Source: an uncultured delta proteobacterium
GTDB taxonomy: Bacteria; Myxococcota_A; Polyangia; Polyangiales; Polyangiaceae
Direction of reading: 5' to 3'
Assembly: GCA_963782055.1 (NCBI GenBank)
Contig: CAWAIF010000003.1
Span: forward strand, 6,656,001 to 6,720,000
DNA length: 64,000 nt
Part shown: positions 30,824-64,000 of the stretch, one piece after another
Numbering within the stretch: the stretch's first letter is position 1
How the letters are laid out: each line of letters begins with the position of its first letter
Translations under genes and position numbers: made by a program
Notes under the pieces: model-generated
Seen by the model: the letters and a program-made list of their open reading frames with translations, nothing else
The model's database searches: none
Told to the model about the DNA's origin: nothing

Positions 30824-32128
30824 TCACCGGACGCGCGCCGAGGGGCCGCGGACCCGCACCACGGTGCCCGGCTCGCCGGGATAAGGCAGGACGGCGCTCC
30901 ACCCCGCCGGCAGGTGAGGTGCGGTGAAGCCGAAGAGCCAGCTCGCGTCGGCGGGGGCGAGGTTGACGCAGCCGTGGCTCTTCTTGCGACCGAAGGCGTC
31001 GTGCCAGAAGACGCCGTGCAGGGCGATGTCCTTGTCGAAGAACTGCACGTACGGCACGTCCTCGAGCGAGTAGCGATGGTCGGGGTCGTCCTCGTCCGTG
31101 GTGTCGGCGTCGGAGCTGGAGCCCAGGTTGTCCATCGTGCTGGCGGTGAGCTTGACCCAGATGCGGAAGACGCCCGGGCGCGTCGCGCTGGCCGTGCCGG
31201 GGGCGCCTCGGCCCGTCGAGACGAGGGTGGCGTAGACGGGGGTCTTGCCCTCGTAGGCCACGAGCGTCTGACGCGCGATGTCCACGTCCACCCACCGCTC
31301 GTGCGGGCCGGTCACCTCCGCGGGCGGCGCGGTGAGCTCGGGGTGCGCCAGATCGCGCGCCGCCATCCACAGTGTGGGCGTCACGCCGTCGTCGGAGATG
31401 CGCACCATGACGCCGCCGCGTGTCGCGCGCTCCTCCCGCCAGGGCACCACCTCGCGACGCACCTTGGAGTCCTGCGGCTTGCTGCGGTTCATCGACGCCC
31501 AGACGCGGGCGCGCTCCGGGATGACCCACGCGAAGTCCAGGTCGCCTCGCTGCTCGCCGCGGAAGGCGGACGGGCGCGCGGCGCCCAGCTCGCGCAGCGC
31601 GACCCACGGGCCGTGGTGCGTGTGCCCCCACACCTCGCCGAAGGCGGCGCGCTCCTGATCGACCGCGACGGCGAAGCCGGGGTCGAGCTGCTCGTCCGGC
31701 GCGTCGTCCTGCGCGCGGGCGAGGTCCAAGAAACCGTCCGCGCCGTTCTTGCCCACGAAGAAATAGCGGTAGGGGAGCGTGCCGGCGGGCACGCCGGACG
31801 ACGCGGGCATCGGCTCCTCCGGGCTCAGGTCCGCCGCCGCGCCGCAGACCCAGGCCGACGGGCCGACCTCCAGCCAGCGTCCGGCGCACGAAGGCCCGCG
31901 CCGCGCGGCGAAGAGCGGCAGGCGGACGCCGCGCAGGGTGGTCCCGCGCTTGGCGTCCGGCTTGCCGGGCGCGGCGACGATGGGCGTCTCGCCGTGCTTC
32001 GGGACGACGGAGCGAGCCCACGTCGGCAGGGGTACGTCGCGCGCCGAGGCCCACGGGGGCGCGTCCCCCGCGCGCGCCACCCCGGCGAGCAACAGCGCCG
32101 AGAGCACCGCGGCGCGGCGGGCGATCAC
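30824..32128 (-). CDS. L,D-transpeptidase (YkuD family)
   Basis: VDIARQTLVAYEG, VSTG, ALHGVFWH, SHGCVNL; GTG start overlaps the upstream stop. Confidence 0.9.
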   Translation of the reverse strand: MIARRAAVLSALLLAGVARAGDAPPWASARDVPLPTWARSVVPKHGETPIVAAPGKPDAKRGTTLRGVRLPLFAARRGPSCAGRWLEVGPSAWVCGAAADLSPEEPMPASSGVPAGTLPYRYFFVGKNGADGFLDLARAQDDAPDEQLDPGFAVAVDQERAAFGEVWGHTHHGPWVALRELGAARPSAFRGEQRGDLDFAWVIPERARVWASMNRSKPQDSKVRREVVPWREERATRGGVMVRISDDGVTPTLWMAARDLAHPELTAPPAEVTGPHERWVDVDIARQTLVAYEGKTPVYATLVSTGRGAPGTASATRPGVFRIWVKLTASTMDNLGSSSDADTTDEDDPDHRYSLEDVPYVQFFDKDIALHGVFWHDAFGRKKSHGCVNLAPADASWLFGFTAPHLPAGWSAVLPYPGEPGTVVRVRGPSARVR

Positions 32129-34002
32129 GGCGACCGCTGCGGCAGGCGGACCTCGAAGATCGCACCGCGCTTGGTGGAGCGCACGCTGACCGTGCCGCCG
32201 TGCTCGTCGGCGATCTTCTTGACGATCGCCAGCCCGAGGCCGGTGCCGCCCGTCTTGCCGCTCGTCACGAAGGACTGGAAGAGGCGGTGCTCGATGTCCT
32301 TGGGGATGCCCGGGCCGGTGTCGGAGAAGGTCAGGAGCAGCTCCTCCTCCGGGTCGCCCTTGTGGACGCGCGCCACCTTGATGGTGAGCTTGCCGCCCCT
32401 GTCCGCCATCGCCTCCTGCGCGTTGCGCGCCAGGTTGTGGATCAGGCGAAGGATCTTGCCCTCGTCGAAGCGGGCCGTGCCGCGGTCCTGCACGTCGATG
32501 ACCAGCTCGATGTTGTAGCGCTGCATCTCGCGGGTGAGCTGCTGGCGCACGTCCTCCATGAACTTCTGGAGGTAGACCTTGCGGACGAAGACGCTGCGCT
32601 CCCCGCGCGCGAACTCCAGCACCTCGCGCTGCATCGCGCTGATGTGATCGAACTGCTTGAGCACCGACTCGGCGTACTCGTCGCGCTTGTCGCGCTTGTC
32701 CGCCGCCTGCATGAGCTGCACGTAACCGCTGATGACGGTGAGGGGCGTCTTCAGGTCGTGGATGACGGCGGAGAGGAGCCGGCCGATGGTGGAGAGGCGG
32801 TCCTCGATCTCGCGCTGCTCCCGCGCCATCTGCAGGCGGATGGCGGTGGAGGCGTTGGCGGCGATGAGGAGCAAGAGGGAGCGGTCCTCCTCGCTGAAGC
32901 CATCCCCGTGGCGCTTGTTGTACAGGGCGATGGCGCCCATCGCGCCCTGGTCCTCGCCCTCCAGCGGCACCGCCAGCGCGGTCTGCGAGGTGAAGCCCAC
33001 CAGCGCGTCCAGGTCGGGGTCGGTGCGGCCGTCCGCCGGCGCGTCGGCGGAGACGAGCACCTCGTTGCGCCACATGGAGTAGCCGATGAGACCCTGGCCG
33101 TCGCGCAGGGGGAAGCGGCGCAGACGCTTGTGCTTGTCGTCCACCAGGTACAGCGAGGTGGCGCCCGTCTCCGGCTCGCGCAGGGCGACGGCGGCGGCGC
33201 GCGACTCGCACGAACGCATCGCCTCGCCGAGGACGGCGATGAAGAGCTCCTCCAGCGAGTGGGCGCGCGCCATGGCGCTCTCCAGCGAGAAGAGCAGGTT
33301 GAGATCGCGGACGCGGTGCTCGAGCTGCTCCTTCGTCTCGACGAGCTGCATGTTCTTCTGGATCGTCGAGAGGAACAGGCGCGAGTTGTCGATGGACACC
33401 GCGGCCTGCGTGACGAGCGACGCGAGCAGACCCTCGTCGTCCTCGGTGAAGGCGCCGTCCTTCTTGTTGAGCACCTGGATGACGCCGATGGTCCGACCCA
33501 GGTGGTTCTTCAGCGGCGCGGCGAGGATGCTCTCGGTGTGGTAGCCGGACAACGTGTCCCACTCCGGGGAGAAGCGGGGGTCCTCCCGCGCGCACGGGAC
33601 GACCAGCAGCTTCCCGGTGCGCGCCACGTGCCCGGCGATGCCGTGCCCCAGCTTCAGACGGATGGAGCGCACCTCGTCCCCCTGGATGATGCGCGAGACC
33701 AGCTCGTCGTTGGCCTCGTCGAGCAGGTAGAGGGTGGCGCGATCGGCCTCGAGGGCGTCGGTGATGCGGTCCAGGATCAGCTCCAGGACCTGATCCAGGT
33801 CCAGCGTGGTGCCCAGCGCGAGGCCCACGTCGCGCAGCGCTGAGGAGACCCTCTTCTCGCGGGCCAGCGCCGTCTCCAGCTCGGCGATCCGGCCGTCGCG
33901 CGGGTCGAGCCGGGTGAGCCCTCGCCCTGCCCCCGACGCCGGTGCCGGGGGCGCGGGCCGCGACGAGCGTCGCGGCGGGGGCGAGTCGGGGTTGTGCGCC
34001 AC
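32125..34002 (-). CDS. Cytoplasmic GAF-GAF histidine kinase
   Basis: GAF motifs (GIAGHVA, NKKDGAFTEDD), HDLKTPL, NLARNA, DTGPG, GTGLGL. Confidence 0.92.
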   Translation of the reverse strand: MAHNPDSPPPRRSSRPAPPAPASGAGRGLTRLDPRDGRIAELETALAREKRVSSALRDVGLALGTTLDLDQVLELILDRITDALEADRATLYLLDEANDELVSRIIQGDEVRSIRLKLGHGIAGHVARTGKLLVVPCAREDPRFSPEWDTLSGYHTESILAAPLKNHLGRTIGVIQVLNKKDGAFTEDDEGLLASLVTQAAVSIDNSRLFLSTIQKNMQLVETKEQLEHRVRDLNLLFSLESAMARAHSLEELFIAVLGEAMRSCESRAAAVALREPETGATSLYLVDDKHKRLRRFPLRDGQGLIGYSMWRNEVLVSADAPADGRTDPDLDALVGFTSQTALAVPLEGEDQGAMGAIALYNKRHGDGFSEEDRSLLLLIAANASTAIRLQMAREQREIEDRLSTIGRLLSAVIHDLKTPLTVISGYVQLMQAADKRDKRDEYAESVLKQFDHISAMQREVLEFARGERSVFVRKVYLQKFMEDVRQQLTREMQRYNIELVIDVQDRGTARFDEGKILRLIHNLARNAQEAMADRGGKLTIKVARVHKGDPEEELLLTFSDTGPGIPKDIEHRLFQSFVTSGKTGGTGLGLAIVKKIADEHGGTVSVRSTKRGAIFEVRLPQRSP

Positions 34003-41249: not shown

Positions 41250-42002
41250 CTAGCGCTTCGTCGCCGCGATGACGACATGCGGATACGGCAGCACGTCGGG
41301 CACGCGGACGATGCGGACCTTGAAGCCCACGTCGGTGAGCAGCTCGGCCCACGCGCGGTGGTGGCGGTAGGCGAGCGGCTCGCGCATGCCCACCATGAGG
41401 CGATCGAGCGCCTCGGTGAAGAGCAGGCCGTAGTGCGGCTCGGTGGTGATGTCCTTGATGAGGAGCATCCCGCCGGGGACGAGCACGTCGTAGAGGCGCT
41501 CGAGCACCGCCCGCTGGGAGGCCGCCGGGATGTGGTGCATGACGTCCAGCACGTAGACCGCGTCGAAGGGGCCACCCAGCTCGGCGTCGCGCACGTCCCC
41601 CACCACGAAGCGGTGATGGGGCAGGTCCAGCTTCGAGGCCACACGCCGGGCGAGGCGGATGCGGCGCGCATTGGGATCCACGCCGGTGATGCGGCGGCCG
41701 CGGTGCGTCTGGCCGAAGTAGGCGGCGAAGAGGCCGAAGCCGCACCCGACGTCCAGGACGTTGCCCTCGTCGGTGAGCAGCAGGTCCATCACGCTCAGCA
41801 GCTTGGAGCGCAGGATGGAGAAGCGGGCGAAGGCGTAGGCGCGCTCGAAGGGGGGCAGCGCCTGCCCGATGTTGCGCATCGCCTCGCGGCCGAAGACCTC
41901 GTGCGCCTCGTAGGACGGGGCGGCGGCGATGCTCGCGCGGAGCCGGCGGCTCCGGGGGGGGGAGTCGGGCGGTCGAGAGGAGGGGACGGCCACGGGCGGC
42001 AC
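41250..42002 (-). CDS. Class I SAM-dependent methyltransferase (start uncertain)
   Basis: VLDVGCGFG, GVD, FDAVYVLDVMHH, LVPGGMLLI. Confidence 0.9.
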   Translation of the reverse strand: MPPVAVPSSRPPDSPPRSRRLRASIAAAPSYEAHEVFGREAMRNIGQALPPFERAYAFARFSILRSKLLSVMDLLLTDEGNVLDVGCGFGLFAAYFGQTHRGRRITGVDPNARRIRLARRVASKLDLPHHRFVVGDVRDAELGGPFDAVYVLDVMHHIPAASQRAVLERLYDVLVPGGMLLIKDITTEPHYGLLFTEALDRLMVGMREPLAYRHHRAWAELLTDVGFKVRIVRVPDVLPYPHVVIAATKR

Positions 42003-42305: not shown

Positions 42306-43994
42306 ATGGACTCCACCTCCCCCACCAAGATCGACACCGTACCCCCCCCGGCGGGGGCCGACTTCTCGCTGCTGATTCTGAAGCCACTGTTTCACGCGCT
42401 GGCTCAAGACGTTGGCGAGATGGTGCTGAGCGAGATCGGGCACGAGGTGGGTCTCACCGCGGGGGATCTGCTGCAAGGCCAGCGTTGGGTCACGCATGGC
42501 GATCTCGAAGCCCTGATGCGGCTCGCCCGCGCCCGGTACGGGAGCGACGCGGAGTTCATGAACGCATGCGCTCGCGACATGACGAAGTACTGGGGGATCG
42601 CCGCGCTGGTGTTCCGCGCCGGGACCATCCTCATGAGCTACAAGGTCCTGGCGAAAACGACCCATGTGGTCAGTCACGTCAGCGACTACGAGATGTCGGA
42701 GGGGACCGCCCGGTCGGTGACGCTGACCTACCGGAGCAAGAAGCCGGAGTCTCGCCTGATGTGCCTCTCCCGGCAGGCGCAGCTGCCGTGCGTACCACTG
42801 ATGTTCTGGAAGCTGGCGCCCGCCCGGCTGACCGAGACCCGGTGCATCGCGCACGGCGACGACGCCTGCGTCTACAACCTGCGGTGGAGCGAGCCGCTCG
42901 CCTGGCGCATCCCCGCCCTCGGCGCGCTCATCGGCGGCCTCGGCGCCGGCGTGGCCTACGCGGGCGGGTGGGAGCCGCACACCGCCGCCTTCTTGCCCCT
43001 CGTCGGGGCGCTGATGGGGGCCGCCTTCGCCTTCCGCCGCATGGTGGAGCAGAGCCACGCCTTTCACGCCGAGACCACCGAGCGCGTGGGCGAGCTGGTC
43101 ACGGCTCATCACAGCGCGATCGACGAGGTCATGGCGCTTCACCAGAGGCAGGAGGCGTACAACGCCATGCTGGAAGATCGGATCGAGTCGCGCACCGCGA
43201 CGCTGGAGGCGATGGTCCGCGAGCTTCGCGGCATCCGCGAGAAGAGCGGCACGGCCCTCAAGGGCCTCTCGCACGACATCCGCAACCCGCTGCAGGTGGT
43301 GAAGCTGAACGCGCAGGCGCTCTCCGAGTACCCCGACAAGGAGGTCGCGGAGGTCGCCGAGCAGATCACCGAGAGCCTGGTGCGCGTGGAGGCGCACATC
43401 CAGCGGCTCGCCATGCTGGCGACCGCCGAGAAGGACGCCTTCGCGCTCAAGGCGGAGCGGGTGGACGTGGGCCCGGTGGCCGACCGCCTCCGCAAGCACC
43501 TGCAGGCGCTCGTCATCGCCCGGGACATCCGCGTGAGCGTCTTCCGCACGCGCGAGGCGCCAGACGCCATCGAGACCGACCTCATGCTCTTCGACCGCGT
43601 GCTCGACAACATCCTGAGCAACGCCGTCAAGTACACCGAGCGCGGCAGCATCGTGGTGGAGGTGGGTGGCGCGCCGGAGAAGCTCTCCATCAAGGTCTCC
43701 GACACCGGCCGCGGCATCGCGCCGGAGCGCCTGGAGAAGGTGTTCGTCGGCGGCCAGCGCGACGAGCGCCCGCTCCTGGGCGAGAGCCACGGCATCGGCC
43801 TCGCCAACACCGTGCGCCTGCTCGATCAGCTCGGCGCCCGGCTCGAGGTCATGTCCAAGCCCGGGGTGGGCACCACGGTGTGGGCCCACTTCCCGATGAT
43901 GCCGCCCCCGGCGACCCCGCACCCCAGCCTGCGGCCCGGCCCGCGGGAGATGCTGGCGCGCGTGGTCACCATCCGTAACGCAGCCAACGAATAG
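42306..43994 (+). CDS. Histidine kinase with an N-terminal V4R/H-NOX-like ligand-binding domain and a TM hairpin
   Basis: ETRCIAHGDDACVYNLRW V4R-type motif; SHDIRNPL, NILSNAVKYT, DTGRG, GIGL. Confidence 0.85.
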   Translation: MDSTSPTKIDTVPPPAGADFSLLILKPLFHALAQDVGEMVLSEIGHEVGLTAGDLLQGQRWVTHGDLEALMRLARARYGSDAEFMNACARDMTKYWGIAALVFRAGTILMSYKVLAKTTHVVSHVSDYEMSEGTARSVTLTYRSKKPESRLMCLSRQAQLPCVPLMFWKLAPARLTETRCIAHGDDACVYNLRWSEPLAWRIPALGALIGGLGAGVAYAGGWEPHTAAFLPLVGALMGAAFAFRRMVEQSHAFHAETTERVGELVTAHHSAIDEVMALHQRQEAYNAMLEDRIESRTATLEAMVRELRGIREKSGTALKGLSHDIRNPLQVVKLNAQALSEYPDKEVAEVAEQITESLVRVEAHIQRLAMLATAEKDAFALKAERVDVGPVADRLRKHLQALVIARDIRVSVFRTREAPDAIETDLMLFDRVLDNILSNAVKYTERGSIVVEVGGAPEKLSIKVSDTGRGIAPERLEKVFVGGQRDERPLLGESHGIGLANTVRLLDQLGARLEVMSKPGVGTTVWAHFPMMPPPATPHPSLRPGPREMLARVVTIRNAANE

Positions 43995-44013
43995 AAATAG
44001 CGAGAAGTAAGCC

Positions 44014-45747
44014 ATGCCCGACGCATCCGGATTCACCCGTGCACTCGACGTTTTTCTCCAGTACCTGATCGCGGAGGGGGCCACGGTCGTCTTCGGGGTC
44101 CCCGGCGGGCTCCTTCACCCCTTCTTCGAGGCCGTGGAGCAGCACCCGAAGCTGCGCCTGGTGGTCACCAAGCACGAGGAGGGCGCGGCGTTCATGGCCG
44201 ACGGCTTCGCCCGGACGACGGGCCACCTCGGCGTGTGCGCGAGCACCGCCGGCCCCGGCGCGACCAACCTGATGACCGGCGTCTCCGTCGCCTACGCCGA
44301 CGGCGTCCCCATGCTCGTCCTCACCGGGCAGGTGCAGTCGTCGGCGATCGGCAAGGGCGCCGCGCAGGAGACGGGCGCGGGCGACATGGACATCGTGGCG
44401 ATGTTCCGTCCGGTCACCAAGTACTCGGCGTTCGTCGAGTCGCCCGACCGCCTCGCCCACCACCTGCGCCGCGCGCTGCGCATGGCGATGAGCGGCCGGC
44501 CGGGGCCGGTGCACCTGAACATCCCGGTCGACTTCTGGGGCAAGGCGGTGGAGGAGCACTGGTTCGACCCGGAGACGTACCGCCCGACGTCGCACCTGTT
44601 CGACCGCAACGCGGTGAGCCGCGCGGCCGAGGCGCTGCTCAAGGCGCGCAAGCCCACGCTCCTGGTGGGGTCCGGCTGCGTGGCCGCCGGCGCCGAGGAG
44701 CACGTGCAGACCCTCGCCGAGCTGCTGCAGGCGCGCGTGTGCACCTCGCCCCGCGCCAAGGGCGCGCTGGCCGAGGATCACCCGCTCTCCATGGGCGTGC
44801 TCGGCTTCGCCGGGCACCGCGAGGCGAAGTCCACCCTGCTCTCCAGCGACGTGGACACCCTCTTCACCGTCGGCGCCTCGCTGAACGAGACGACCACCTT
44901 CAACTGGAACCCCGAGCTGCGCCACGGCAAGACGCTCATCCAGCTGGACATCGACTCCGACCGCGTCGGCCGCAGCTACCCCGTCGACATCCCCCTCGTC
45001 GGCGACGCGCAGACGATCCTCGTCGAGCTCGTCTACCACATCCACCGGCGCATCCGGGACGGCGCGGTCCCGGCGTCGGAGTGGCCGAAGGCGAAGCCGC
45101 CCGTGCGCGGGCACGCGCGCTACGACCAGCCGGACCTGCGCAAGTCGGACGCCGTGCCGCTCACGCCGCAGCGCTGGCGCGTGGACCTGCAGCAGGCGCT
45201 GCCCGACGACGCCATCCTCTTCTCCGACATCGGCGGGCACATGCTCTTCAACATCCACAATCTCTGCATCCGCGAGGGCCAGCGCTTCGTGCTCAACCTG
45301 GGCTTCGGCTCGATGGGCCACGGCACCTGCGCGCCCATCGGTGCGGCGCTCGCGCACCCCGGGCGCCCTGTCGTCTCCATCATCGGCGATGCCTGCTTCA
45401 CCATGAACGGGATGGAGCTGCTCACCGCCGCCGAGTACCGCGTGCCCGTCGTGTGGATCGTGGAGAACAACCAGATGCACGGCATCACCTGGCACGGCAG
45501 CCAGAAGGTGGGCAACGGCAAGCCAATGAACGCGGTGAAGTACCAGCGCCCGCTGGAGGTCGCGTCGATCGCGCGGGCCATGGGCCTGCCGGCGTGGGTC
45601 GTCGACAGCCCGGACCAGATCCAGGACGCGCTGAAGGAGGCCCTCCGCATGCACGCGCCGGCGCTCATCGAGGTGCGCGTCGACGGCCGCATCTGCCCTC
45701 CGCTCGGCGACCGCGCGCGCAGCGTCGCGGGGTTCAAGGGTACATGA
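44014..45747 (+). CDS. Thiamine-diphosphate-dependent enzyme (acetolactate synthase-like family)
   Basis: FGVPGG, HEEGAAFMADG, GPGATN, GRPGPVHL, GSMG, GDACFTMNGMEL..ENN. Confidence 0.92.
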   Translation: MPDASGFTRALDVFLQYLIAEGATVVFGVPGGLLHPFFEAVEQHPKLRLVVTKHEEGAAFMADGFARTTGHLGVCASTAGPGATNLMTGVSVAYADGVPMLVLTGQVQSSAIGKGAAQETGAGDMDIVAMFRPVTKYSAFVESPDRLAHHLRRALRMAMSGRPGPVHLNIPVDFWGKAVEEHWFDPETYRPTSHLFDRNAVSRAAEALLKARKPTLLVGSGCVAAGAEEHVQTLAELLQARVCTSPRAKGALAEDHPLSMGVLGFAGHREAKSTLLSSDVDTLFTVGASLNETTTFNWNPELRHGKTLIQLDIDSDRVGRSYPVDIPLVGDAQTILVELVYHIHRRIRDGAVPASEWPKAKPPVRGHARYDQPDLRKSDAVPLTPQRWRVDLQQALPDDAILFSDIGGHMLFNIHNLCIREGQRFVLNLGFGSMGHGTCAPIGAALAHPGRPVVSIIGDACFTMNGMELLTAAEYRVPVVWIVENNQMHGITWHGSQKVGNGKPMNAVKYQRPLEVASIARAMGLPAWVVDSPDQIQDALKEALRMHAPALIEVRVDGRICPPLGDRARSVAGFKGT

Positions 45748-46448
45748 CCGCGGCGGCGAAGGGCGTGGGGCCCATCGAGGACCGCGAGCTGCCGCAGACG
45801 CTCACCGCCCGGGTGGTGCAGCCCGGCGCGCGGCCGAGGCTGCACGGCTACGACGTGCAGGGCGATCTGGCGCGCCACTACCGCTTCGGCGAGGTGGTGC
45901 TGCTGGCACTCACCGGAGAGGCACCGACGGAGGAGGCGGGCCGCGCCTTCGAGGTGGCGATGGTCTTCGCCGGTGCCGCTCCCATCTCCGAACCGCCTGC
46001 CCACGCCGCGTCCCTCGCCCGGCTGTGCGGTGCGCGCCCCGGCAGCGTGACGGCGGTGGCGGCGGTCGCCTTGACCGAGCAAGCGCGGGCGAGCGTGGAG
46101 CAGCACGGCGAGCTCTTGCGCTGGCTCGCGATGCCGGAAGGTCCCTTGCCCGAGTCGGCCCGCGCGAAGACCGAGGACGAGCACCTCGCCTGCGCCCGCA
46201 TGCGGCGAGCGCTGGGGGACCTGTCGCGCCTGGTCCCTGTGCTCCAGGAGGACTTGGCGCCGGAGGGTGTGCTCCTGGCAGTCCTGTTCGCCTGCGGGCT
46301 TCAGGATCCGGATCGTATCCAGGTCGCCCTGACGCTCGCGCGCCTGGCCGCCACGACGGCGGAAGGGCTCGCCACCACGCCCGGGGCGCTCCGCGACTAT
46401 CCAATGAACGTGCCCGCCTTTCGGTACGAGGAGCTCACCGATGCCTGA
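45744..46448 (+). CDS. Degenerate citrate synthase / citryl-CoA lyase-fold protein
   Basis: LHGYDVQGDL..FGEVVLLALTGEAP N-terminal pattern; ATGA-coupled; catalytic motifs not visible. Confidence 0.65.
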   Translation: MTAAAKGVGPIEDRELPQTLTARVVQPGARPRLHGYDVQGDLARHYRFGEVVLLALTGEAPTEEAGRAFEVAMVFAGAAPISEPPAHAASLARLCGARPGSVTAVAAVALTEQARASVEQHGELLRWLAMPEGPLPESARAKTEDEHLACARMRRALGDLSRLVPVLQEDLAPEGVLLAVLFACGLQDPDRIQVALTLARLAATTAEGLATTPGALRDYPMNVPAFRYEELTDA

Positions 46449-47247
46449 TGACATCACTACCCGCGTCGCGCGCGCCGACTGGGGCGAGAACCACTTTCGC
46501 GGATACCGGGTGAACGGCCAGCTCGTCGGAACCGACGGCTGGGCGAGCGTGCTGTCTCTCGCCGCGGGCGGTCCGCGTCTCGGAAAGGAGGACGCGGCGC
46601 TCGTGGAAGATCTGGCGATCTGCTCCCTGGCGGCGGACCCGCGCATCTGGCCGCTGAAGGCGGCGCGGCTCGTGGCAACGTACGGAAGTGCCTTCGCAGG
46701 CATCGCGAGCGGCCACCTGCTGCTCGCGGGTGCGATGATGGGTCCGGAACCGACGGGGGCCGCGGCCAACCTGCTCATCGAGCTCGCGACGAAGCTGGGG
46801 GACCGTGCGGATGATCCAGCCGCCGTGCAGGAGCTGGTCGACGACCTGCTCGCGAACGGGCGCGTTCCCGGCTTCGGGGTGGCGTTTCGCGGCGCCGACG
46901 AGCGGGTCAATGCAATCAAGGGGTGCATCGCGACGCGCGGGCGAGAATCCGGCCCATACTGGCGTCTCCTGAGCGCGCTCGAGGCTGCCGTCCGAGCGCG
47001 CCGAGAGCTCCACGTCAACCTCGGCCTGGCCGCAGCCGCCGTCTTGCTCGACGTCGGTATGCGACCGGACACGATCACCTTCGTGATGTCCGCGTACCTC
47101 GACGTGTGCTTCTACGCCAACGCGGTCGAGGGCGCGGAGCAGAAGTCGGAGGTGCTGCGACGCCTGCCCGACGACGCCGTGCGCTACGAGGGGCCACCGC
47201 CCCGCGTCTCCCCGCGCGCCGCGCTCGCCGGCAAAGGCGGGAGGTGA
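46441..47247 (+). CDS. Citrate synthase / citryl-CoA lyase-fold protein with substituted catalytic residues
   Basis: FRGYRV, DPRIWP, RVPGFGV (for PGFGH), DER, HVNLG (for NVD), YEGP. Confidence 0.72.
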   Translation: MPDDITTRVARADWGENHFRGYRVNGQLVGTDGWASVLSLAAGGPRLGKEDAALVEDLAICSLAADPRIWPLKAARLVATYGSAFAGIASGHLLLAGAMMGPEPTGAAANLLIELATKLGDRADDPAAVQELVDDLLANGRVPGFGVAFRGADERVNAIKGCIATRGRESGPYWRLLSALEAAVRARRELHVNLGLAAAAVLLDVGMRPDTITFVMSAYLDVCFYANAVEGAEQKSEVLRRLPDDAVRYEGPPPRVSPRAALAGKGGR

Positions 47248-47283: not shown

Positions 47284-47360
<77 letters not shown>

Positions 47361-48332: not shown

Positions 48333-49112
48333 TCAATCCTGCGCGAAGAGCACCGCGGTGGGCGTCGCATGGACCTCGTGCTCCGGATCGTGGATGCGCG
48401 CCACGCCCGTCCCGACGGCCACCAGCTCCAGGATGTGCGAGTCCCACCCGTGGTTGCTCTCGCGCACGTCCACCGCGACGATGCCCGCATCCGCCCCCGC
48501 CTGCGCCGCCTCGTACTGCATGCGGCCCATCGCGAGCTCGCGCGCGTCGTAGAGCGCGGCGGTAAACTGCGGCATCTCCAGGTTCTGGTACTGCTGGCCG
48601 GAGAAGAAGCTGGAGAGCGCCTTGCCGAGCGACTGGTGCGCGATGTGATAGACGCACACGCCGTGCGCCAGGGAGATCGGGCGGAAGCCGGCGCGCACCA
48701 GCGCCCAGAAGTCCACGCCGGAGAGGTCGCAGGTGAAGGGCATCCCGTGCCGGTCGCGCCACGCCGCACCGTCGCCCTTGCGGCGACGCACGGCGGTGCC
48801 GATCGCGCAGAACTCGGCGTGGTCGCCCTCGCGCTCCATCTCGATGCGCATGCCCACGACGCCGTCGGCGCCGAAGCGGCCGGCCTGCTCGAGCAGCCGC
48901 GCCATCGCGAGCTGGCGGGCGCGCAGCATCATCGCCGAGACGTTGCCCAGCTCCTGGTTGGCGGTCCACGCCGCGTACGACCACCCGATGTGGAAGTAGC
49001 TCGTGCCCATCACCAGCTCGAGCGGCTCGAACCCCACCTCCTCGACGAGCATCAGCTCGTCGATGGTGAGGTCGCTCGTGAAGGCGTGGGTAGGCGCCGC
49101 CGCCTGGTTCAT
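48333..49112 (-). CDS. YbjQ/UPF0145-like (putative heavy-metal-binding) double-domain protein, paralogue 3
   Basis: FTSDL..LVMG..ARQLAMARL..GADGVVG and a second FTCDLSG..DARELAMGRM module. Confidence 0.8.
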   Translation of the reverse strand: MNQAAAPTHAFTSDLTIDELMLVEEVGFEPLELVMGTSYFHIGWSYAAWTANQELGNVSAMMLRARQLAMARLLEQAGRFGADGVVGMRIEMEREGDHAEFCAIGTAVRRRKGDGAAWRDRHGMPFTCDLSGVDFWALVRAGFRPISLAHGVCVYHIAHQSLGKALSSFFSGQQYQNLEMPQFTAALYDARELAMGRMQYEAAQAGADAGIVAVDVRESNHGWDSHILELVAVGTGVARIHDPEHEVHATPTAVLFAQD

Positions 49113-49960
49113 TCGTTCACCGTCATCACGAGCTGCGGCGTGGGCGGCGCCTCCACCGCGTGGATGGGCACCACGCTGGTGCCGATGGCGAAGAACTCGA
49201 TGACGTGGGCGTCCCACCCGCCGTGCGTCCACTCGTAGACCTCGGTCCCGACCACGCCCTGCGCGCCGTCCGTCTGCGCCTCGTACTGCAGACGCTCCAT
49301 CGCCAGCTCGCGCGCGTCGTACAGGGCCTGGGTGAAGTTGGGCATCTCCACGTTCTGCCCGGCGCTCTGGAACCAGCCGCCGAGCGTCTGGTGCGCGACG
49401 TGGTAGACGCAGTTGCCCATCACCAGCGAGACGGGCCGGAAGCCGCTGCGCAGCAGCATCCAGAAGTCCTGACCGGACAGATCGCTGGTGAAGGGCATGC
49501 CGCTCGGCGCGCGGAAGTTCGGCACCTCGTACTGCTTCTTCGCGGCCTCCTGCGCGAAGACCGCGGTGCCCACGGCGACGAACTCGATGAGGCTCTCCCC
49601 CCAGGCGTGGCGGTTGACCTTCAGCCGCACGCCGATGACACCCTCGGCGCCGAGCTCGTGCGCCTCTTCTTCCATGCGCGCCATCGCAAGCTCGCGGGCC
49701 TGGTAGAGCGCCTGCGTCAGCACGCCCATCTCCTGGTTCTGGCTGTAGCCCGCGCGCTGGTAGCCCACGTGGTAGATGGAGGAGCCCATCACCAGGCCGG
49801 CGCACTCGAAGCCGGCCTCGCGTACCAGCAAGAACTCCTTCACCGAGAGGTCGCTGGTGAAGAAGCGCTGCCCCTGCGGCCCACGCATGCGCTGGATGCG
49901 CTCGGCGGCGTGCTGGGGGATCGCCTGGCGCTGCGCCTGCGGGCGGTTGTAGTTGGCCAT
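49109..49960 (-). CDS. YbjQ/UPF0145-like double-domain protein, paralogue 2
   Basis: FTSDLS twice, ARELAMARMEEEA..GAEGVIGV, EFVAVGTAV. Confidence 0.82.
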   Translation of the reverse strand: MANYNRPQAQRQAIPQHAAERIQRMRGPQGQRFFTSDLSVKEFLLVREAGFECAGLVMGSSIYHVGYQRAGYSQNQEMGVLTQALYQARELAMARMEEEAHELGAEGVIGVRLKVNRHAWGESLIEFVAVGTAVFAQEAAKKQYEVPNFRAPSGMPFTSDLSGQDFWMLLRSGFRPVSLVMGNCVYHVAHQTLGGWFQSAGQNVEMPNFTQALYDARELAMERLQYEAQTDGAQGVVGTEVYEWTHGGWDAHVIEFFAIGTSVVPIHAVEAPPTPQLVMTVNE

Positions 49961-49963
49961 CGG

Positions 49964-50914
49964 TCAGTCCTCGCGGTTCTCGAAGCGCACGTTGGGGTTC
50001 TGCGAGGCGAGGCCGTGCTCGCCGTAGCGTGAAGGGCGATCCCGGAGGTCGACGACGACGAGCGGGCGCGGCGGCGCGTGATCGTGCGCGACGTCCGCGC
50101 GGCGCACGACGGCGGTGCCCATGACGACGAGATCGAGCTCGAAGGAGGTGTGGCTGCTCTCGTTGACCTCGTACTCGCGGTCGCGGCCGCGGCGCAGGAT
50201 GCGTACGCCGACGACCCCGTGCGCGCCGAAGTGCTGCGCGAAGGTGCGGAAGCGGTGCACCGCCTGGTCGCGCGCCTCGTGGGCCGCGCGGGTGTGTACC
50301 GGGAGCTCGCCGGAGAACCAGCTCCCCTCGCTGGCGCAGTCGGCGTGGCGCGCGTACCAGAAGCAGTTGCCGATGGCGATGCCGGAGGGCCAGTAGCCGG
50401 CGCGGTGGAGCTTGAAGAGCTCGTCCGCCTTCAGCAGGGTGAGCACCGGCTGCTGCGGTGGCGGCACGTCCTTGACGCGCACCGCTGTGCCCACGGCGGT
50501 GAACTCGATGAGATCGGCGCCCCACTCGTAGCCGCGGCCGAGGAAGCGCACGTCGATGACCATGTGCGCGCCGAGCAGCGCCGCCTCCTGCTGCATGCGC
50601 GAGAGGGCGCGGGAGCGCGCCGTCTCGTAGGCGCGGGTGAGCTGCACCAGCTCCCCGCCGCCCCACCGCGCGAAGCCGCGCAGCCCGACGTGAAAGACGC
50701 TGGAGCCCATCACCTGACTGATGGGCTCGACCCCGGTGGACCGCGCGACCACCGTCTCCGGCACCGAGAGGGTGCTGGTGAAGACCTTCTGCTGCCCCTG
50801 GTTCAGCTCCCAGATCCGGCGCTGCGCGCGCAGCGGCAGTCCGCCCTGCTGGACCTGCGCGGTGCTGCGCGCCTCGTCGACGGGGCGGTCCGGAAGAAAC
50901 TGGTGGCGCGGCAT
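49964..50914 (-). CDS. YbjQ/UPF0145-like double-domain protein, paralogue 1
   Basis: FTSTLS, VMGSSVFH, ARSRALSRMQQEA, EFTAVGTAV; TGATG-coupled. Confidence 0.8.
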   Translation of the reverse strand: MPRHQFLPDRPVDEARSTAQVQQGGLPLRAQRRIWELNQGQQKVFTSTLSVPETVVARSTGVEPISQVMGSSVFHVGLRGFARWGGGELVQLTRAYETARSRALSRMQQEAALLGAHMVIDVRFLGRGYEWGADLIEFTAVGTAVRVKDVPPPQQPVLTLLKADELFKLHRAGYWPSGIAIGNCFWYARHADCASEGSWFSGELPVHTRAAHEARDQAVHRFRTFAQHFGAHGVVGVRILRRGRDREYEVNESSHTSFELDLVVMGTAVVRRADVAHDHAPPRPLVVVDLRDRPSRYGEHGLASQNPNVRFENRED

Positions 50915-51481: not shown

Positions 51482-53329
<1,848 letters not shown>

Positions 53330-53339
53330 CGGGACAGCC

Positions 53340-54227
53340 TCAGCGCGACGAGAGGGCGCGGGCGCGGGCGGCGAGATCGCGCGCGCCCATGCGGTCGGTC
53401 CACGCGCCGAAGTCGGGGCTGGTGCCGCGCCATCGCAGATCCTCCAGCGTCTCATCGAGCGGCACGTCGGTGACCAGCGTGGCCAGCTCCTTGTAGAGCG
53501 CGAGGTCCTCGCGGGCACCGCGGAGTGTGCCGGCGAGGCGTGGCGCGCCGCGCACCCCGGCCGGCCACGCGGCGGGGTCGTCGGGGATGGCCTCCACGTG
53601 CTCGAAGCGCGCGAGGAGCGCCGCCGCGGTCTTGGCGCCGAAGCCGGTCAGGCCGGGGATGCCGTCGGCGGTGTCGCCGGTGAGGGCGAGCAGATCCGGA
53701 ATGCTCGCGGGTCCCACGCCGCGGACGGCGCGCATCGCCGCCTCGTCGATCTCCTTGCGGCGGATGCGGTCCACCTGCACCACGCGCCTGTCCGCCAGAC
53801 ATTGCCCGAAGTCCTTGTCCGGGCTGAGGATGCGCACCTGGGTGCACGCGCCGGCCGCGGGGGTCTCGCCGGCGGGCGGCGCGTGGCGACGCGCGGCCGT
53901 CGCGATGGCGTCGTCCGCCTCGTAGCGGCTCATCGACCAGACGGTGACGCCGGCGGCGCGCGTGGCCTCCTCCGCCGCGTCGAACTGCGCGTGCAGCTCG
54001 GGCGGGACGCCCTCGTCCGACTTGTAGCCGGCGAACATGTCGTTTCGGAAGGAGCGGATGGGGTTGTCGAAGGCGACCGCCAGGTGGGTGGCCTTCTCGT
54101 CGGGGTCGGCGAGCAGGGTGAGGAGCGAGGCGACCAGGCCAACTGTGGCCTTGTGGGGGCGGTCGGGCTTCGGTGAAAAGTGTGCGCGGTACAGCTCGAA
54201 GGTGCCGTCGATGAGGTGGAGGCGCAC
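53340..54227 (-). CDS. Stand-alone 5'-3' exonuclease / flap endonuclease
   Basis: LIDG, AFD, YK, EADD, SPDKD, GDTADGIPG, GAKTA. Confidence 0.92.
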   Translation of the reverse strand: MRLHLIDGTFELYRAHFSPKPDRPHKATVGLVASLLTLLADPDEKATHLAVAFDNPIRSFRNDMFAGYKSDEGVPPELHAQFDAAEEATRAAGVTVWSMSRYEADDAIATAARRHAPPAGETPAAGACTQVRILSPDKDFGQCLADRRVVQVDRIRRKEIDEAAMRAVRGVGPASIPDLLALTGDTADGIPGLTGFGAKTAAALLARFEHVEAIPDDPAAWPAGVRGAPRLAGTLRGAREDLALYKELATLVTDVPLDETLEDLRWRGTSPDFGAWTDRMGARDLAARARALSSR

Positions 54228-55576: not shown

Positions 55577-57018
55577 GCGCGACGCCTCCGTCGGACGAAG
55601 GCGATCGCGATGCCCACCATGCCGAGCACCATCACCGGCGCGCCCGCGGGGCCGCCCACCACCTCCAGCGCGCAGAAGCCGCCGCCGGCCGTGCCGCCGG
55701 CCTGCCTGTATTTCTTCCAGAAGTCGTCGACCGGCTGTGGCGTCGCGCACACCGCGCTGGAGACGTCACCGTCATTGCCGAAGGTGTCGTAGGCGGCGAC
55801 CGCGACGGCGTAGCTGGTGCCGTTGGTGAGGCCGGTCACCTGCGCGCTGACGTTGGTCGCGCCCGCCGCGGTGGCCATCGGCGAGAGGCCGGTCGTGTCC
55901 AGCGTGCCGCCATCGCCCGAGGCGGAGCAAGACGCGGTGGTGACGGGTTGCTGGTAGCAGCCGGCGTCGACGGGCACGACAACGGGGTTGCCTGCGTCGT
56001 CGGTGCCACCGTCGGTGAAGCCGCCGTCGGGGCAGACCGTGGTGGTGCCCGCGTCCGCCGGGCTGGCGCCGGAGGCCTCCACGAAGACGTGGTAGCCCGC
56101 GAGGTCCGGCTCGGTCGACGACGCCGACCACGACACCGAGAGGGCGCCGTCGATCCCCTCCGCCGTCACGCCGGTGGGCGCGCCGGGCCCGAGCAGCTTC
56201 ACCTGGATGGGATAGGGCGTGGACGCGGACACCGGGTTGGAGCTGCCGTCCAGCCAGATGAAGTTGACGTTGACCGTCGTCTCGCCGGAGCCCAGCCCGT
56301 TGTCGCAGACCGAGGAGTCCGCCGCCGTGTACGTCAGGTTCTTGGTGGACGAGCCGAGCTGGCTGACGAGGTCCTGGACGCGGACCTGCGCGATGACCGT
56401 GGACGACTGGGCGACGTTGGTCGGGTAGACCGGCCAGCACGTCGGGTTGGTGCCGGTGATCTCGCCCGTCGTCTGGCAGTTGTCCGCGCCCGCCCACACC
56501 TGGAGCGAGCTGCTGGTGGGAAGCCCGGTCAGCACCAGCGGGAAGTTGAAGGTCACGTCCTTCAGGCAATCGTCCCGGCTGATGCCCTGCTGCGTCCCGT
56601 TGACGATGCGCGTCGGCGCCGCCGAGCCGTCCGGGTACGTCCGGTACACCGCGGTCGTGGTGAAGGTCACCGTCTGGGCGAACGCGCGGGCCGGGGCGAG
56701 CCACGCGCACAGGGCGACGATCGCGAACACGAGCGGGCCAAGCGCGCGGGCCCGCCTGAGGTTCCGCGCTTGCGCGGACCGACGGCCCGAAGGGCGCACG
56801 GTACCGAGGTTCCGCGCTTGCGCGGACCGACGGCCCGAAGGGCGCACGGTACCGAGGTTCCGCGCTTGCGCGGACCGACGGCCCGAAGGGCGCACGGTAC
56901 CGAGGTTCCGCGCTTGCGCGGACCGACGGCCCGAAGGGCGCACGGTACCGAGGTTCCGCGCTTGCGCGGGCCGAGGGCGCCATCGAGGGCGGCGCGCACG
57001 GGGGAGACGCGTAGTCAT
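55573..57018 (-). CDS. FN3-domain, C-terminally anchored surface protein (MXAN_2561-like / MYXO-CTERM type); alternative GTG starts lie within the repeat (e.g. 56799)
   Basis: GLTNGTSYAVAVAAYD, DDFWKKYRQAGG..GGFC, TM followed by RRRRR. Confidence 0.78.
   Translation of the reverse strand: MTTRLPRARRPRWRPRPAQARNLGTVRPSGRRSAQARNLGTVRPSGRRSAQARNLGTVRPSGRRSAQARNLGTVRPSGRRSAQARNLRRARALGPLVFAIVALCAWLAPARAFAQTVTFTTTAVYRTYPDGSAAPTRIVNGTQQGISRDDCLKDVTFNFPLVLTGLPTSSSLQVWAGADNCQTTGEITGTNPTCWPVYPTNVAQSSTVIAQVRVQDLVSQLGSSTKNLTYTAADSSVCDNGLGSGETTVNVNFIWLDGSSNPVSASTPYPIQVKLLGPGAPTGVTAEGIDGALSVSWSASSTEPDLAGYHVFVEASGASPADAGTTTVCPDGGFTDGGTDDAGNPVVVPVDAGCYQQPVTTASCSASGDGGTLDTTGLSPMATAAGATNVSAQVTGLTNGTSYAVAVAAYDTFGNDGDVSSAVCATPQPVDDFWKKYRQAGGTAGGGFCALEVVGGPAGAPVMVLGMVGIAIAFVRRRRRA
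56758..56969. repeat. 48-bp perfect tandem repeat, 4 full copies plus a 20-bp partial, REP-like
   Basis: Unit gaggttccgcgcttgcgcggaccgacggcccgaagggcgcacggtacc at 56758, 56806, 56854, 56902, partial at 56950. Confidence 0.97.
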
Positions 57019-63727: not shown

Positions 63728-63896
63728 TCGCCGGCGCGACGGGGGACGGCGCGCGCGGGAGCCAGTGGTTCATCCGCGCCCGCTTCGTGTCGAGGTAGCC
63801 GGCGCTGTGCGGGTTCGCCGCGACGACAATCGGCAGGCGCTCCTCCACCACGATCCCCGTGCCCTCCAGGGCGTAGACCTTCTCGGGGTTGTTCGT
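63708..63896 (-). pseudogene. ribA: C-terminal fragment of GTP cyclohydrolase II (RibA)
   Basis: TNNPEKVYALEGTGIVVEERLPIVVAANPHSAGYLDTKRARMNH; the same frame upstream is not RibA-like. Confidence 0.72.
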
Positions 63897-64000
63897 CCCG
63901 GTGCCCGTACATCTGCAGGTACGCCGGCACCAGGAACTCGCCGAACGCCTCCAGCAGCTCCGCCGGCGCTGTGCCCGTCCGCGCCGACGCGGCGGCCACG
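63897..64000 (-). other. Internal fragment of an H-NOX/HNOB heme-NO-binding-like protein, truncated at the junction
   Basis: VAAASARTGTAPAELLEAFGEFLVPAYLQMYG resembles H-NOX N-terminal helices; only about 33 codons are visible. Confidence 0.55.

Follow-up and report, generated by a model that had tools for sequence, protein, structure and literature searches.

Our analysis revealed a cassette of four genes in a 64-kb stretch of DNA (hereafter the window; positions 6,656,001 to 6,720,000 of contig CAWAIF010000003.1) from an uncultured delta proteobacterium of the Polyangiaceae. The genes, all on the plus strand, encode a sensor histidine kinase (P0001), a thiamine diphosphate (ThDP) dependent enzyme (P0002) and two citrate-synthase-like (CS-like) proteins, CS-like 1 (P0003) and CS-like 2 (P0004) (Table 1). 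The linkage between the kinase gene and the enzyme genes is conserved among relatives, and in some of them the CS-like pair is replaced by a FabH-like gene. The cassette is a variant of the furanolide-type module of a ThDP enzyme plus partner, and it stands outside the CybE/CybF pathway and the citrate synthase, IlvB and ScyA families. Tentatively, and at not quite an even chance, we read it as a synthase-receptor system in which the ThDP enzyme would supply an acid, the CS-like pair would turn it into a butenolide-type lactone and the kinase would sense the product. On this reading the cassette would represent an undescribed cell-to-cell signalling system.

Table 1. Features of the cassette and the adjoining tRNA gene, with positions in the 64-kb window.
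Feature	Positions	Strand	Length or remark
Sensor histidine kinase P0001	42306-43994	+	562 aa
Sensor domain of P0001	42348-42893	+	SRLxCLxRQ motif; predicted zinc site C153/E177/C180/C188
ThDP enzyme P0002	44014-45747	+	577 aa
CS-like 1 P0003	45744-46448	+	234 aa
CS-like 2 P0004	46441-47247	+	268 aa
tRNA-Arg(TCG)	47284-47360	+	ARAGORN; 36 bp 3' of cassette

The tight, co-directional spacing described in the first-pass annotation of this DNA was confirmed, with a gap of 19 bp between the kinase and ThDP genes, an overlap of 4 bp (ATGA) between the ThDP and CS-like 1 genes and one of 8 bp between the two CS-like genes.

The ThDP enzyme and its citryl-CoA-lyase-like partners

The closest solved relatives of P0002 across its full length are BbmA (8x3x, E 3.7e-131, residues 8-563) and CsmA (8x3z, 2.9e-100), while acetohydroxyacid synthase (AHAS) I reached 8.4e-73. 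According to the available text of PMC12395478, BbmA (printed there as 'BpmA') and CsmA are homologues of CybE that make alpha-hydroxy-beta-keto acids; CybE couples two 2-oxo acids, and CybF then acylates and cyclises the product using acyl-coenzyme A (acyl-CoA). P0002 keeps the catalytic HEE glutamate and the GDA...ENN motif, and conservation is at least 95% at 212 positions in 59 kinase-linked ThDP sequences. The conservation of the ThDP enzyme (64-81%) lies far above that of its cassette neighbours. P0002 is predicted from its sequence to be a carboligase of the BbmA-like clade that joins two 2-oxo acids to an alpha-hydroxy-beta-keto acid.

Two other assignments of P0002 were rejected. As the first-pass annotation had supposed, it is not a housekeeping IlvB: it scores 399.8 bits against a cut-off of 538.35 (TIGR00118), and the absence of ilvN and ilvC, noted earlier for the neighbourhood, extends to the whole 97%-complete genome, where the family search found no match to ilvN and only a 66-position fragment of ilvC under cut-off, although both families were matched in 13-14 of 14 control genomes. 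A ScyA-like enzyme of secondary metabolism had also been proposed. The placement in a keto-acid-coupling, secondary-metabolite group holds, but P0002 is BbmA-like rather than ScyA-like, since no ScyA score came near cut-off (models NF035923 and NF035927 were outside its best 25 NCBIfam hits) and it is separate from the ScyA-related paralogue of the same genome (696 bits, 28% identical to P0002). That paralogue falls in another clade of the ThDP tree, which was built in quick mode without a mixture model from 63 of 95 distinct sequences and contained no housekeeping IlvB, BbmA or CybE.

For CS-like 2, the structure model (predicted local distance difference test, pLDDT, 95.6) matched citryl-CoA lyase 6hxp best, with Z 22.7 and a root mean square deviation (rmsd) of 3.6 over 250 aligned residues; citrate synthases reached Z 10.5-15.4, and a search of the ESM Atlas returned Citrate_synt clusters. 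The citrate-synthase-fold genes of the first-pass annotation do travel as a pair, but are thus better described as citryl-CoA-lyase-like. The fold of CS-like 1 was assigned by profile only, with a profile probability of 96.8% against citryl-CoA-lyase-like proteins.

Compared with the citryl-CoA lyase (CCL) of Hydrogenobacter thermophilus (6hxp), the CCL module of ATP-citrate lyase and PRK06224, CS-like 2 is equal in length and fold and retains the GxG loop, the arginine of DxR and the asparagine of NVD. However, DHG is changed to DPR, GYGH to GFGV and NVD to NLG, and the protein belongs to a 'DPRIW' clade; the histidines of DHG and GxGH and the aspartate of NVD are catalytic in the canonical enzymes. 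The missing canonical motifs had been noted earlier for both proteins, correctly, but PGFGV and NLG belong to CS-like 2 only, and in CS-like 1 the small-domain motifs GFGH, DPR and NxxG are gone altogether (conserved there are H87, E207, Y219, P220 and Y228). Nor is the change of NVD to NLG, though present, a distinctive mark, because ligase-linked ordinary lyase-like proteins of relatives read NAT, NVT or NLA at this position. The distinctive losses of CS-like 2 are the two histidines, both of which are kept by most ordinary lyase-like genes of relatives.

Among 236 homologues of CS-like 2, G144, D153 and R155 are invariant (236 each), and R150 (235), G146 (234), E154 and E230 (231 each), K73 (229), N193 (228), D66 (225) and R68 (222) are nearly so. 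At the former catalytic positions, P67 occurs in 231 and V147 in 213 of them, and position 195 is A, G or S. The near-invariant set (D66, R68, W70, K73, R76, R150, D153, E154, R155, N193, E230 and R255) exceeds, as judged from the alignment, what a decaying gene would be expected to keep. In its two unequal genes, its new invariant residues and its linkage to a ThDP enzyme rather than to an acyl-CoA ligase, the cassette differs from the citryl-CoA lyases; ordinary citryl-CoA-lyase-like genes adjoin acyl-CoA ligases in 10 of 11 loci with weak hits, the eleventh lying on a short contig. Lyase-like genes with MDQ in place of MEH were also seen beside acyl-CoA ligases in a common multi-gene cluster (L192, L194 and L195).

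In some loci a single protein of ~305 amino acids with a DPRIW-type motif replaces the two CS-like genes, in keeping with a homo-oligomer that gave rise to separate catalytic and helper subunits. From these sequence features CS-like 2 is likely the acyl-CoA-binding catalytic subunit and CS-like 1 likely a non-catalytic partner subunit. A longer, fused form of CS-like 1 was absent among 8000 candidates of 425-2000 amino acids, which is weak evidence. The heterodimer suggested in the first-pass annotation is in keeping with the paired occurrence of the genes, and complex prediction lends it weak modelling support: CS-like 2 with CS-like 1 scored 0.44 against 0.00 for the best control, with a partner pLDDT of at least 85 and agreement between runs in at least 1% of contacts. 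Of 157 solved complexes 116 pass the mark applied, as do 2 of 215 mismatches, and passes at or below 0.60 comprise only 18 of the 157 solved complexes and both mismatches; the score may stem from resemblance to solved CCL oligomers.

Conservation of the cassette and exchange of the partner enzyme

Within the family 34 of 151 genomes had a match to P0004, the genome of the window among them, and within the phylum 41 of 401 did, about half of the latter matches being weak and including ordinary lyase-like genes. As a locus query the single P0004 sequence returned no loci and the alignment 64, all of them in metagenome-assembled records under the names Polyangiaceae, Nannocystaceae, Myxococcales and other delta-group bacteria. 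At E<=1e-30 the CS-like 2 profile had matches in 291 50%-clusters. Plasmid records gave no match to P0004 at E 1e-3 and none to P0002 at E 1e-85.

After de-duplication there were 98 loci anchored on CS-like 2, of which 88 with at least 4.6 kb upstream were used and 10 shorter ones dropped. A ThDP gene lies within 4.6 kb in 84 of the 88 long loci, the kinase family of the cassette is present in 49, and a stand-alone gene for a DUF2378 protein in 11. In three of the four loci without a ThDP gene the genome has a 65-68% orthologue elsewhere that adjoins the kinase; at the fourth the kinase is present and a 63% orthologue is located on a short contig of that genome. Where the ThDP enzyme is of the P0002 type, the kinase accompanies it in 48 of 56 long loci, so that the linkage whose conservation had been named beforehand as a test is indeed conserved. 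Among metagenome loci, a ThDP gene is present in 21 of the 22 (out of 80) that were long enough: 14 had ThDP enzyme and kinase, 7 a ScyA-type ThDP enzyme without sensor, and one neither. Since the arrangement recurs in dozens of genomes, it is not due to chance. No further neighbour genes were conserved across lineages among the relatives' loci.

A second survey was anchored on the sensor. In 201 genomes of the order, the sensor profile had 33 hits at E<=1e-44 (the next at 1e-31), and 24 of these kinase-clade genes adjoin a ThDP gene with a partner: 18 have the CS-like pair, the recurrence that the earlier annotation had proposed to look for by neighbourhood analysis, and 6 a FabH-like gene. 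One further hit has a FabH gene at a contig end, one the CS-like pair alone and one a ThDP gene 7 kb off. Weaker fusions of the same domain had no ThDP or partner genes nearby in any of 16 loci picked from 55 weaker hits.

The interchange of the two partner types is new here. Loci L141 and L145 carry the cassette kinase, a 73-74% ThDP orthologue of P0002 and a FabH-like gene, the latter in the divergent slot that is occupied by the CS-like pair in L031 and L115. L141, L145 and L152 belong to one genus and would therefore represent a single swap event, while in L156 kinase, ThDP gene (68%) and a more distant FabH-like gene stand in a row. Three changes between CS-like and FabH-like partners were counted on the ThDP tree, two of them beside the same kinase and ThDP orthologue, and CS-like partners occur with three ThDP clades (P0002, ScyA-related and DUF2378-linked). 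In the main FabH partner family the catalytic cysteine is retained (ACS/VCN motif), and the identity to cyanobacterial FabH-like plasmid genes directly 3' of ThDP genes, which is the order of cybE and cybF, amounts to 40-50%. Of five such plasmid relatives inspected, two directly follow ThDP genes, two precede genes for nonribosomal peptide and polyketide synthases (NRPS/PKS) and one a cluster for acyl carrier protein and adenylation. A FabH gene near L120 was rejected as a partner, being an ordinary FabH with ~22% identity to the cyanobacterial FabH-like genes. The exchange suggests that the CS-like pair takes the role of CybF, coupling acyl-CoA and forming the lactone, and the simplest reading of the swap would be that the pair performs the job of the FabH-like enzyme.

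With the CybE/CybF systems for cyanobacterin, nostoclide and maculalactone, a pathway also proposed for the deoxyenhygrolides of Plesiocystis and Enhygromyxa, the cassette has in common a ThDP enzyme, here by prediction, for the coupling of two 2-oxo acids, with a dedicated partner gene downstream, and relatives of the cassette have a FabH-like partner in the position of cybF. It differs in that the partner is a pair with citryl-CoA-lyase fold, a FabH-like gene being absent (but present in L141, L145 and L156), and in that a sensor kinase is part of the operon. Linkage to acyl-CoA ligase or ammonia lyase genes was not seen among the flanking genes scanned and is not conserved in relatives. The cybE-cybF gene arrangement is described in PMC8777810, the available text of which reports two-gene cybE/cybF pairs for myxobacterial butenolide producers, with genetic proof lacking and no full operon.

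Several loci show further features. Decaying copies were seen at two loci, one genome each (L161:5974-8859; L296): in one an IS66 transposase interrupts CS-like 2, and in the other the ThDP orthologue is broken by an in-frame stop and a second kinase is adjacent. The kinase is tandemly duplicated ahead of one cassette in L264 and L265 (179-3408), and L181 contains two full modules of ThDP enzyme and CS-like pair in tandem with a LuxR-type helix-turn-helix gene between them. A protein of ~170 amino acids without Pfam hit follows CS-like 2 in the sensor-less loci L041, L083, L090, L097, L108 and L116. Structural genes of the type VI secretion system (TssF, TssG, gp25-like, ClpV-like ATPase, FHA) flank the nannocystid cassettes of L072, L075, L084, L086, L096, L099, L101, L102, L105, L128 and L129; these and other flanking genes of nannocystid loci were rejected as cassette parts because they reflect lineage synteny.

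The sensor kinase and the genomic surroundings

P0001 consists of a sensor domain (~15-196), two hydrophobic helices (~200-244), a coiled coil, a HisKA domain with H323 and a HATPase_c domain, the last two above their Pfam cut-offs (4e-9 and 8e-21). Averaged over the family, hydrophobicity peaks twice and gives no sign of a signal segment at the N-terminus, so the sensor domain is likely cytoplasmic. Its model (pLDDT 93) matched the H-NOX domain 4u99 with Z 12.9 (rmsd 3.1, 167 aligned residues; Foldseek E 5e-7) and, at about the same level, the ligand-binding domain of VirS (8rcx, Z 12.3), while the V4R domains of PoxR and DmpR scored lower (Z 7.4-7.8; PoxR 5fru 7.8). No Pfam V4R (PF02830) hit was obtained for P0001, and 8 of 48 family members reached E<=0.1, the best 0.0045. 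In the ESM Atlas the sensor matched unnamed clusters only, at 0.85; matches of its profile to toluene monooxygenase were rejected as partial and lacking fold support.

The sensor had earlier been called V4R-like on account of an E-x2-C-x3-G-x3-C motif. The motif is present (E177, C180, G184, C188) and, together with the additionally conserved C153, forms a Cys/Glu cluster of V4R type, whereas the fold is nearer to H-NOX and VirS. Among 48 homologues C153 is kept in 47, E177 in 40, C180 in 41 and C188 in 46, and R156 and W61 in all. The cluster is predicted to be a zinc site, a role that we presume from the sites of PoxR/MopR and H-NOX. H-NOX, the VirS-type AraC N-terminal and the PoxR/DmpR V4R domains share the fold clan and the Cys/Glu cluster with P0001, and their solved members have a pocket binding small ligands. 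The P0001 domain differs by the two membrane helices and the histidine kinase fused to it and by a proximal histidine that is not clearly conserved, and it stays under every Pfam cut-off.

DUF2378 bears a weak profile likeness to this sensor domain (probability 32%, E 5e-4), and a stand-alone DUF2378 gene goes with a divergent ThDP clade, mostly plus a separate HATPase protein. A DUF2378 family search gave no match anywhere, its controls included, and is uninformative. From the available text of PMC9257966, DUF2378 is a myxobacterial family of unknown function, one member of which is induced by a quinolone signal. The variant loci (L057, L058, L059, L062, L063, L131 and L132) combine the divergent ThDP enzyme with one ~305-residue DPRIW-type protein and often a HATPase protein; a flavin halogenase was seen in L058 and a gene of NAD-dependent epimerase type in L057 and L059. 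Elsewhere the sensor domain is fused to a Ser/Thr protein kinase (L138; L068:7177-8961, G000:C3 ~52200-53960); such weak fusions are common in the order, and none was found near ThDP genes.

The same genome (7.58 Mb) contains a second cluster, L067 (G000:C3:6249090-6258645), with genes for an alpha/beta hydrolase, a ScyA-related ThDP enzyme, a FabH-like protein, an anti-sigma kinase, SpoIIE, two STAS proteins and a weak DUF2378 match (E 0.014). It converges on a LuxR-type regulator and a paralogue of the cassette kinase, and clusters of this type recur in L156, L157 and L158.

As the first-pass annotation had stated, no response regulator is near the cassette: none of the genome's 114 receiver domain matches falls in the window, and the nearest lie ~54 kb downstream and ~84 kb upstream. 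A sigma-70-like promoter was not found for the cassette, and the one terminator-like site was at chance level. Cassette GC content (0.69-0.72) is comparable to that of the rest of the window, so a compositional sign of recent insertion is absent. The methyltransferase gene upstream (41250-42002) recurs only in loci of close relatives. Other features of the window are a further orphan histidine kinase (GAF-GAF-HisKA-HATPase; 32125-34002, minus strand) whose gene overlaps one for an L,D-transpeptidase, three YbjQ-like genes in tandem, putatively heavy-metal-binding (48333-50914, minus strand), about five tandem 42-bp copies at ~56800-57000, seen as repeated peptides in every frame, and a Pfam HNOB match above cut-off that spans the right edge (63711-64000 and beyond; G000:C3:6719904-6720146, minus strand).

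A possible signal synthase and receptor

In the proposed synthase-receptor system, the ThDP enzyme would very probably couple two 2-oxo acids to an alpha-hydroxy-beta-keto acid. CS-like 1 and CS-like 2 would then, as we think somewhat probable, act as a hetero-oligomer whose retained GFG loop binds acyl-CoA and whose R150 and R155 bind the carboxylate of the acid, and would, like CybF, transfer the acyl group with decarboxylation and close the ring. For an acyl group passed to a hydroxyl or to a decarboxylated enediolate, no His/Asp pair is needed to enolise acyl-CoA, which would explain the loss of these residues while the CoA loop and the arginines stay. In the last step, which we consider evenly balanced, the hydrophobic product would cross membranes, bind the sensor domain and alter kinase activity. 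The response regulator addressed by the membrane-anchored kinase would be encoded elsewhere; one candidate output is the LuxR-type regulator that accompanies the paralogous kinase (G000:C3:6249090). The basis for this tentative reading includes the ThDP linkage, the CybE homology of BbmA and CsmA, the FabH swap, the likeness of the partners to cyanobacterial FabH-like genes, the sensor-anchored survey, the DUF2378 clade, the weak complex score and the precedent of nostoclide. This furanolide is a density-dependent mediator in Nostoc, and the available text of PMC9324945 gives no autoinduction of its own cluster and a receptor that is unknown.

Quorum-sensing systems such as LuxI/LuxR, CqsA/CqsS and the gamma-butyrolactone systems are known pairs of synthase and receptor. 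The cassette likewise couples genes for putative small-molecule synthases to a putative receptor gene, and its relatives include orphan receptors of this kind, whereas neither synthases nor sensor are related to those systems in sequence.

A number of observations weigh against this reading. Lacking both catalytic histidines and the aspartate, CS-like 2 may be a binding protein only. Neither sensor type is found in 28 of the 88 long loci, among them all 15 with a ScyA-type ThDP enzyme, and 6 of the 33 kinase-clade genes have no synthase gene within ~9 kb; the 33 hits, moreover, lean towards cassettes because most sequences behind the sensor profile were cassette kinases, and all counts cover related genomes, not independent samples. 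The tie of the FabH partners to CybF runs via the cyanobacterial FabH-like genes and not via CybF itself, two of the five plasmid relatives of the partners precede NRPS/PKS genes, and P0002 shares just 28% identity with the ThDP enzymes encoded ahead of FabH-like genes in cyanobacteria. The cassette contains no acyl-CoA ligase, exporter or regulator gene, and no convincing shared upstream motif was found in 50 kinase leaders, where the words enriched over mononucleotide shuffles seem to reflect biased base composition. Lastly, a heme-propionate-type YxSx(R/K) motif is partly kept in the 48 sensor homologues (Y142 in 42, S144 in 35, R/K146 in 36, with R in 23 and K in 13), and the sensor may be one for heme or gas.

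This last point leads to an alternative that we regard as unlikely but serious, namely that the three enzymes make a furanolide-like metabolite while the kinase is an upstream regulator sensing another cue, be it an aromatic precursor, heme or nitric oxide, or redox state via its cysteines. It would agree with heme-binding H-NOX domains as the top fold matches, with the loci that have enzymes and no sensor and with nostoclide not autoinducing its own cluster. However, the proximal histidine of H-NOX aligns to Y112 (in a low-confidence profile alignment) and the neighbouring H120 is kept in only 27 of 48 homologues, the genome carries a separate canonical HNOB hit, and the occurrence of one sensor family with ThDP enzymes from two clades and with either partner type is in keeping with a sensor that follows a class of products.

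It is improbable that the CS-like proteins are pseudo-enzymes which form, with the ThDP enzyme, an intracellular sensor of 2-oxo acids or acyl-CoA that contacts the kinase directly, with no diffusible signal. In favour of this view are the absence of every classical catalytic residue, the strong erosion of CS-like 1, the predicted cytoplasmic location of the sensor domain and a ThDP enzyme conserved far above its neighbours, but the FabH-like replacements of the pair retain the catalytic cysteine, and the pair is found with three ThDP clades and often without the kinase.

Also improbable is an acyloin, derived from the decarboxylated ThDP product, as the signal, with the CS-like pair finishing or destroying it as a decarboxylase or lyase. 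While the near-invariance of the CoA-loop glycines G144 and G146 and the exchange with FabH-like enzymes point to acyl transfer instead, the fold family is one of C-C lyases, the potential carboxylate-binding arginines are invariant and CoA ligase linkage is absent. A housekeeping or catabolic operon of acetolactate synthase and citrate-cleaving enzymes, with the kinase there by accident, is hardly credible: close homologues are labelled 'acetolactate synthase large subunit' in databases and in NCBIfam the models for AHAS and citryl-CoA lyase score highest, but these scores are all under cut-off, the genome has its own canonical citrate synthase and neither ilvN nor an ilvC over cut-off, and the distribution over family and phylum is patchy.

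Extending the synthase-receptor reading, the cassette might belong to a myxobacterial family of butenolide signals made by a ThDP enzyme with either a FabH-like partner or a rebuilt heterodimer of lyase fold, and received by heme-free H-NOX-fold domains that are kinase-fused or of DUF2378 type. Two such channels would then exist in this genome and solo kinases would eavesdrop; this wider picture is possible, but we hold it with clear doubt.

A search of the open literature, with subscription journals, ChemRxiv and most supplements outside its scope, found no published description of the cassette or of a citryl-CoA-lyase-like partner of a ThDP enzyme. The available portions of PMC13288894 and PMC12826048 do not mention a citrate-synthase-like partner; genome-mining supplements on BbmA/CsmA and cyanobacterin could list such clusters.

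To our knowledge, little is known of dedicated autoinducer systems in Polyangia-type and nannocystid myxobacteria. As the three enzyme genes amount to only 3.2 kb and nature provides swap controls with the same ThDP enzyme and a FabH partner, the idea is directly testable by heterologous expression. If true, the citrate-synthase/citryl-CoA-lyase fold would gain a new reaction, convergent with that of the furanolide synthase CybF and of use in biocatalysis, and the orphan H-NOX-fold and DUF2378 domains would gain a ligand class. For Polyangia-type and nannocystid myxobacteria, the cassette would then be a candidate chemical language.

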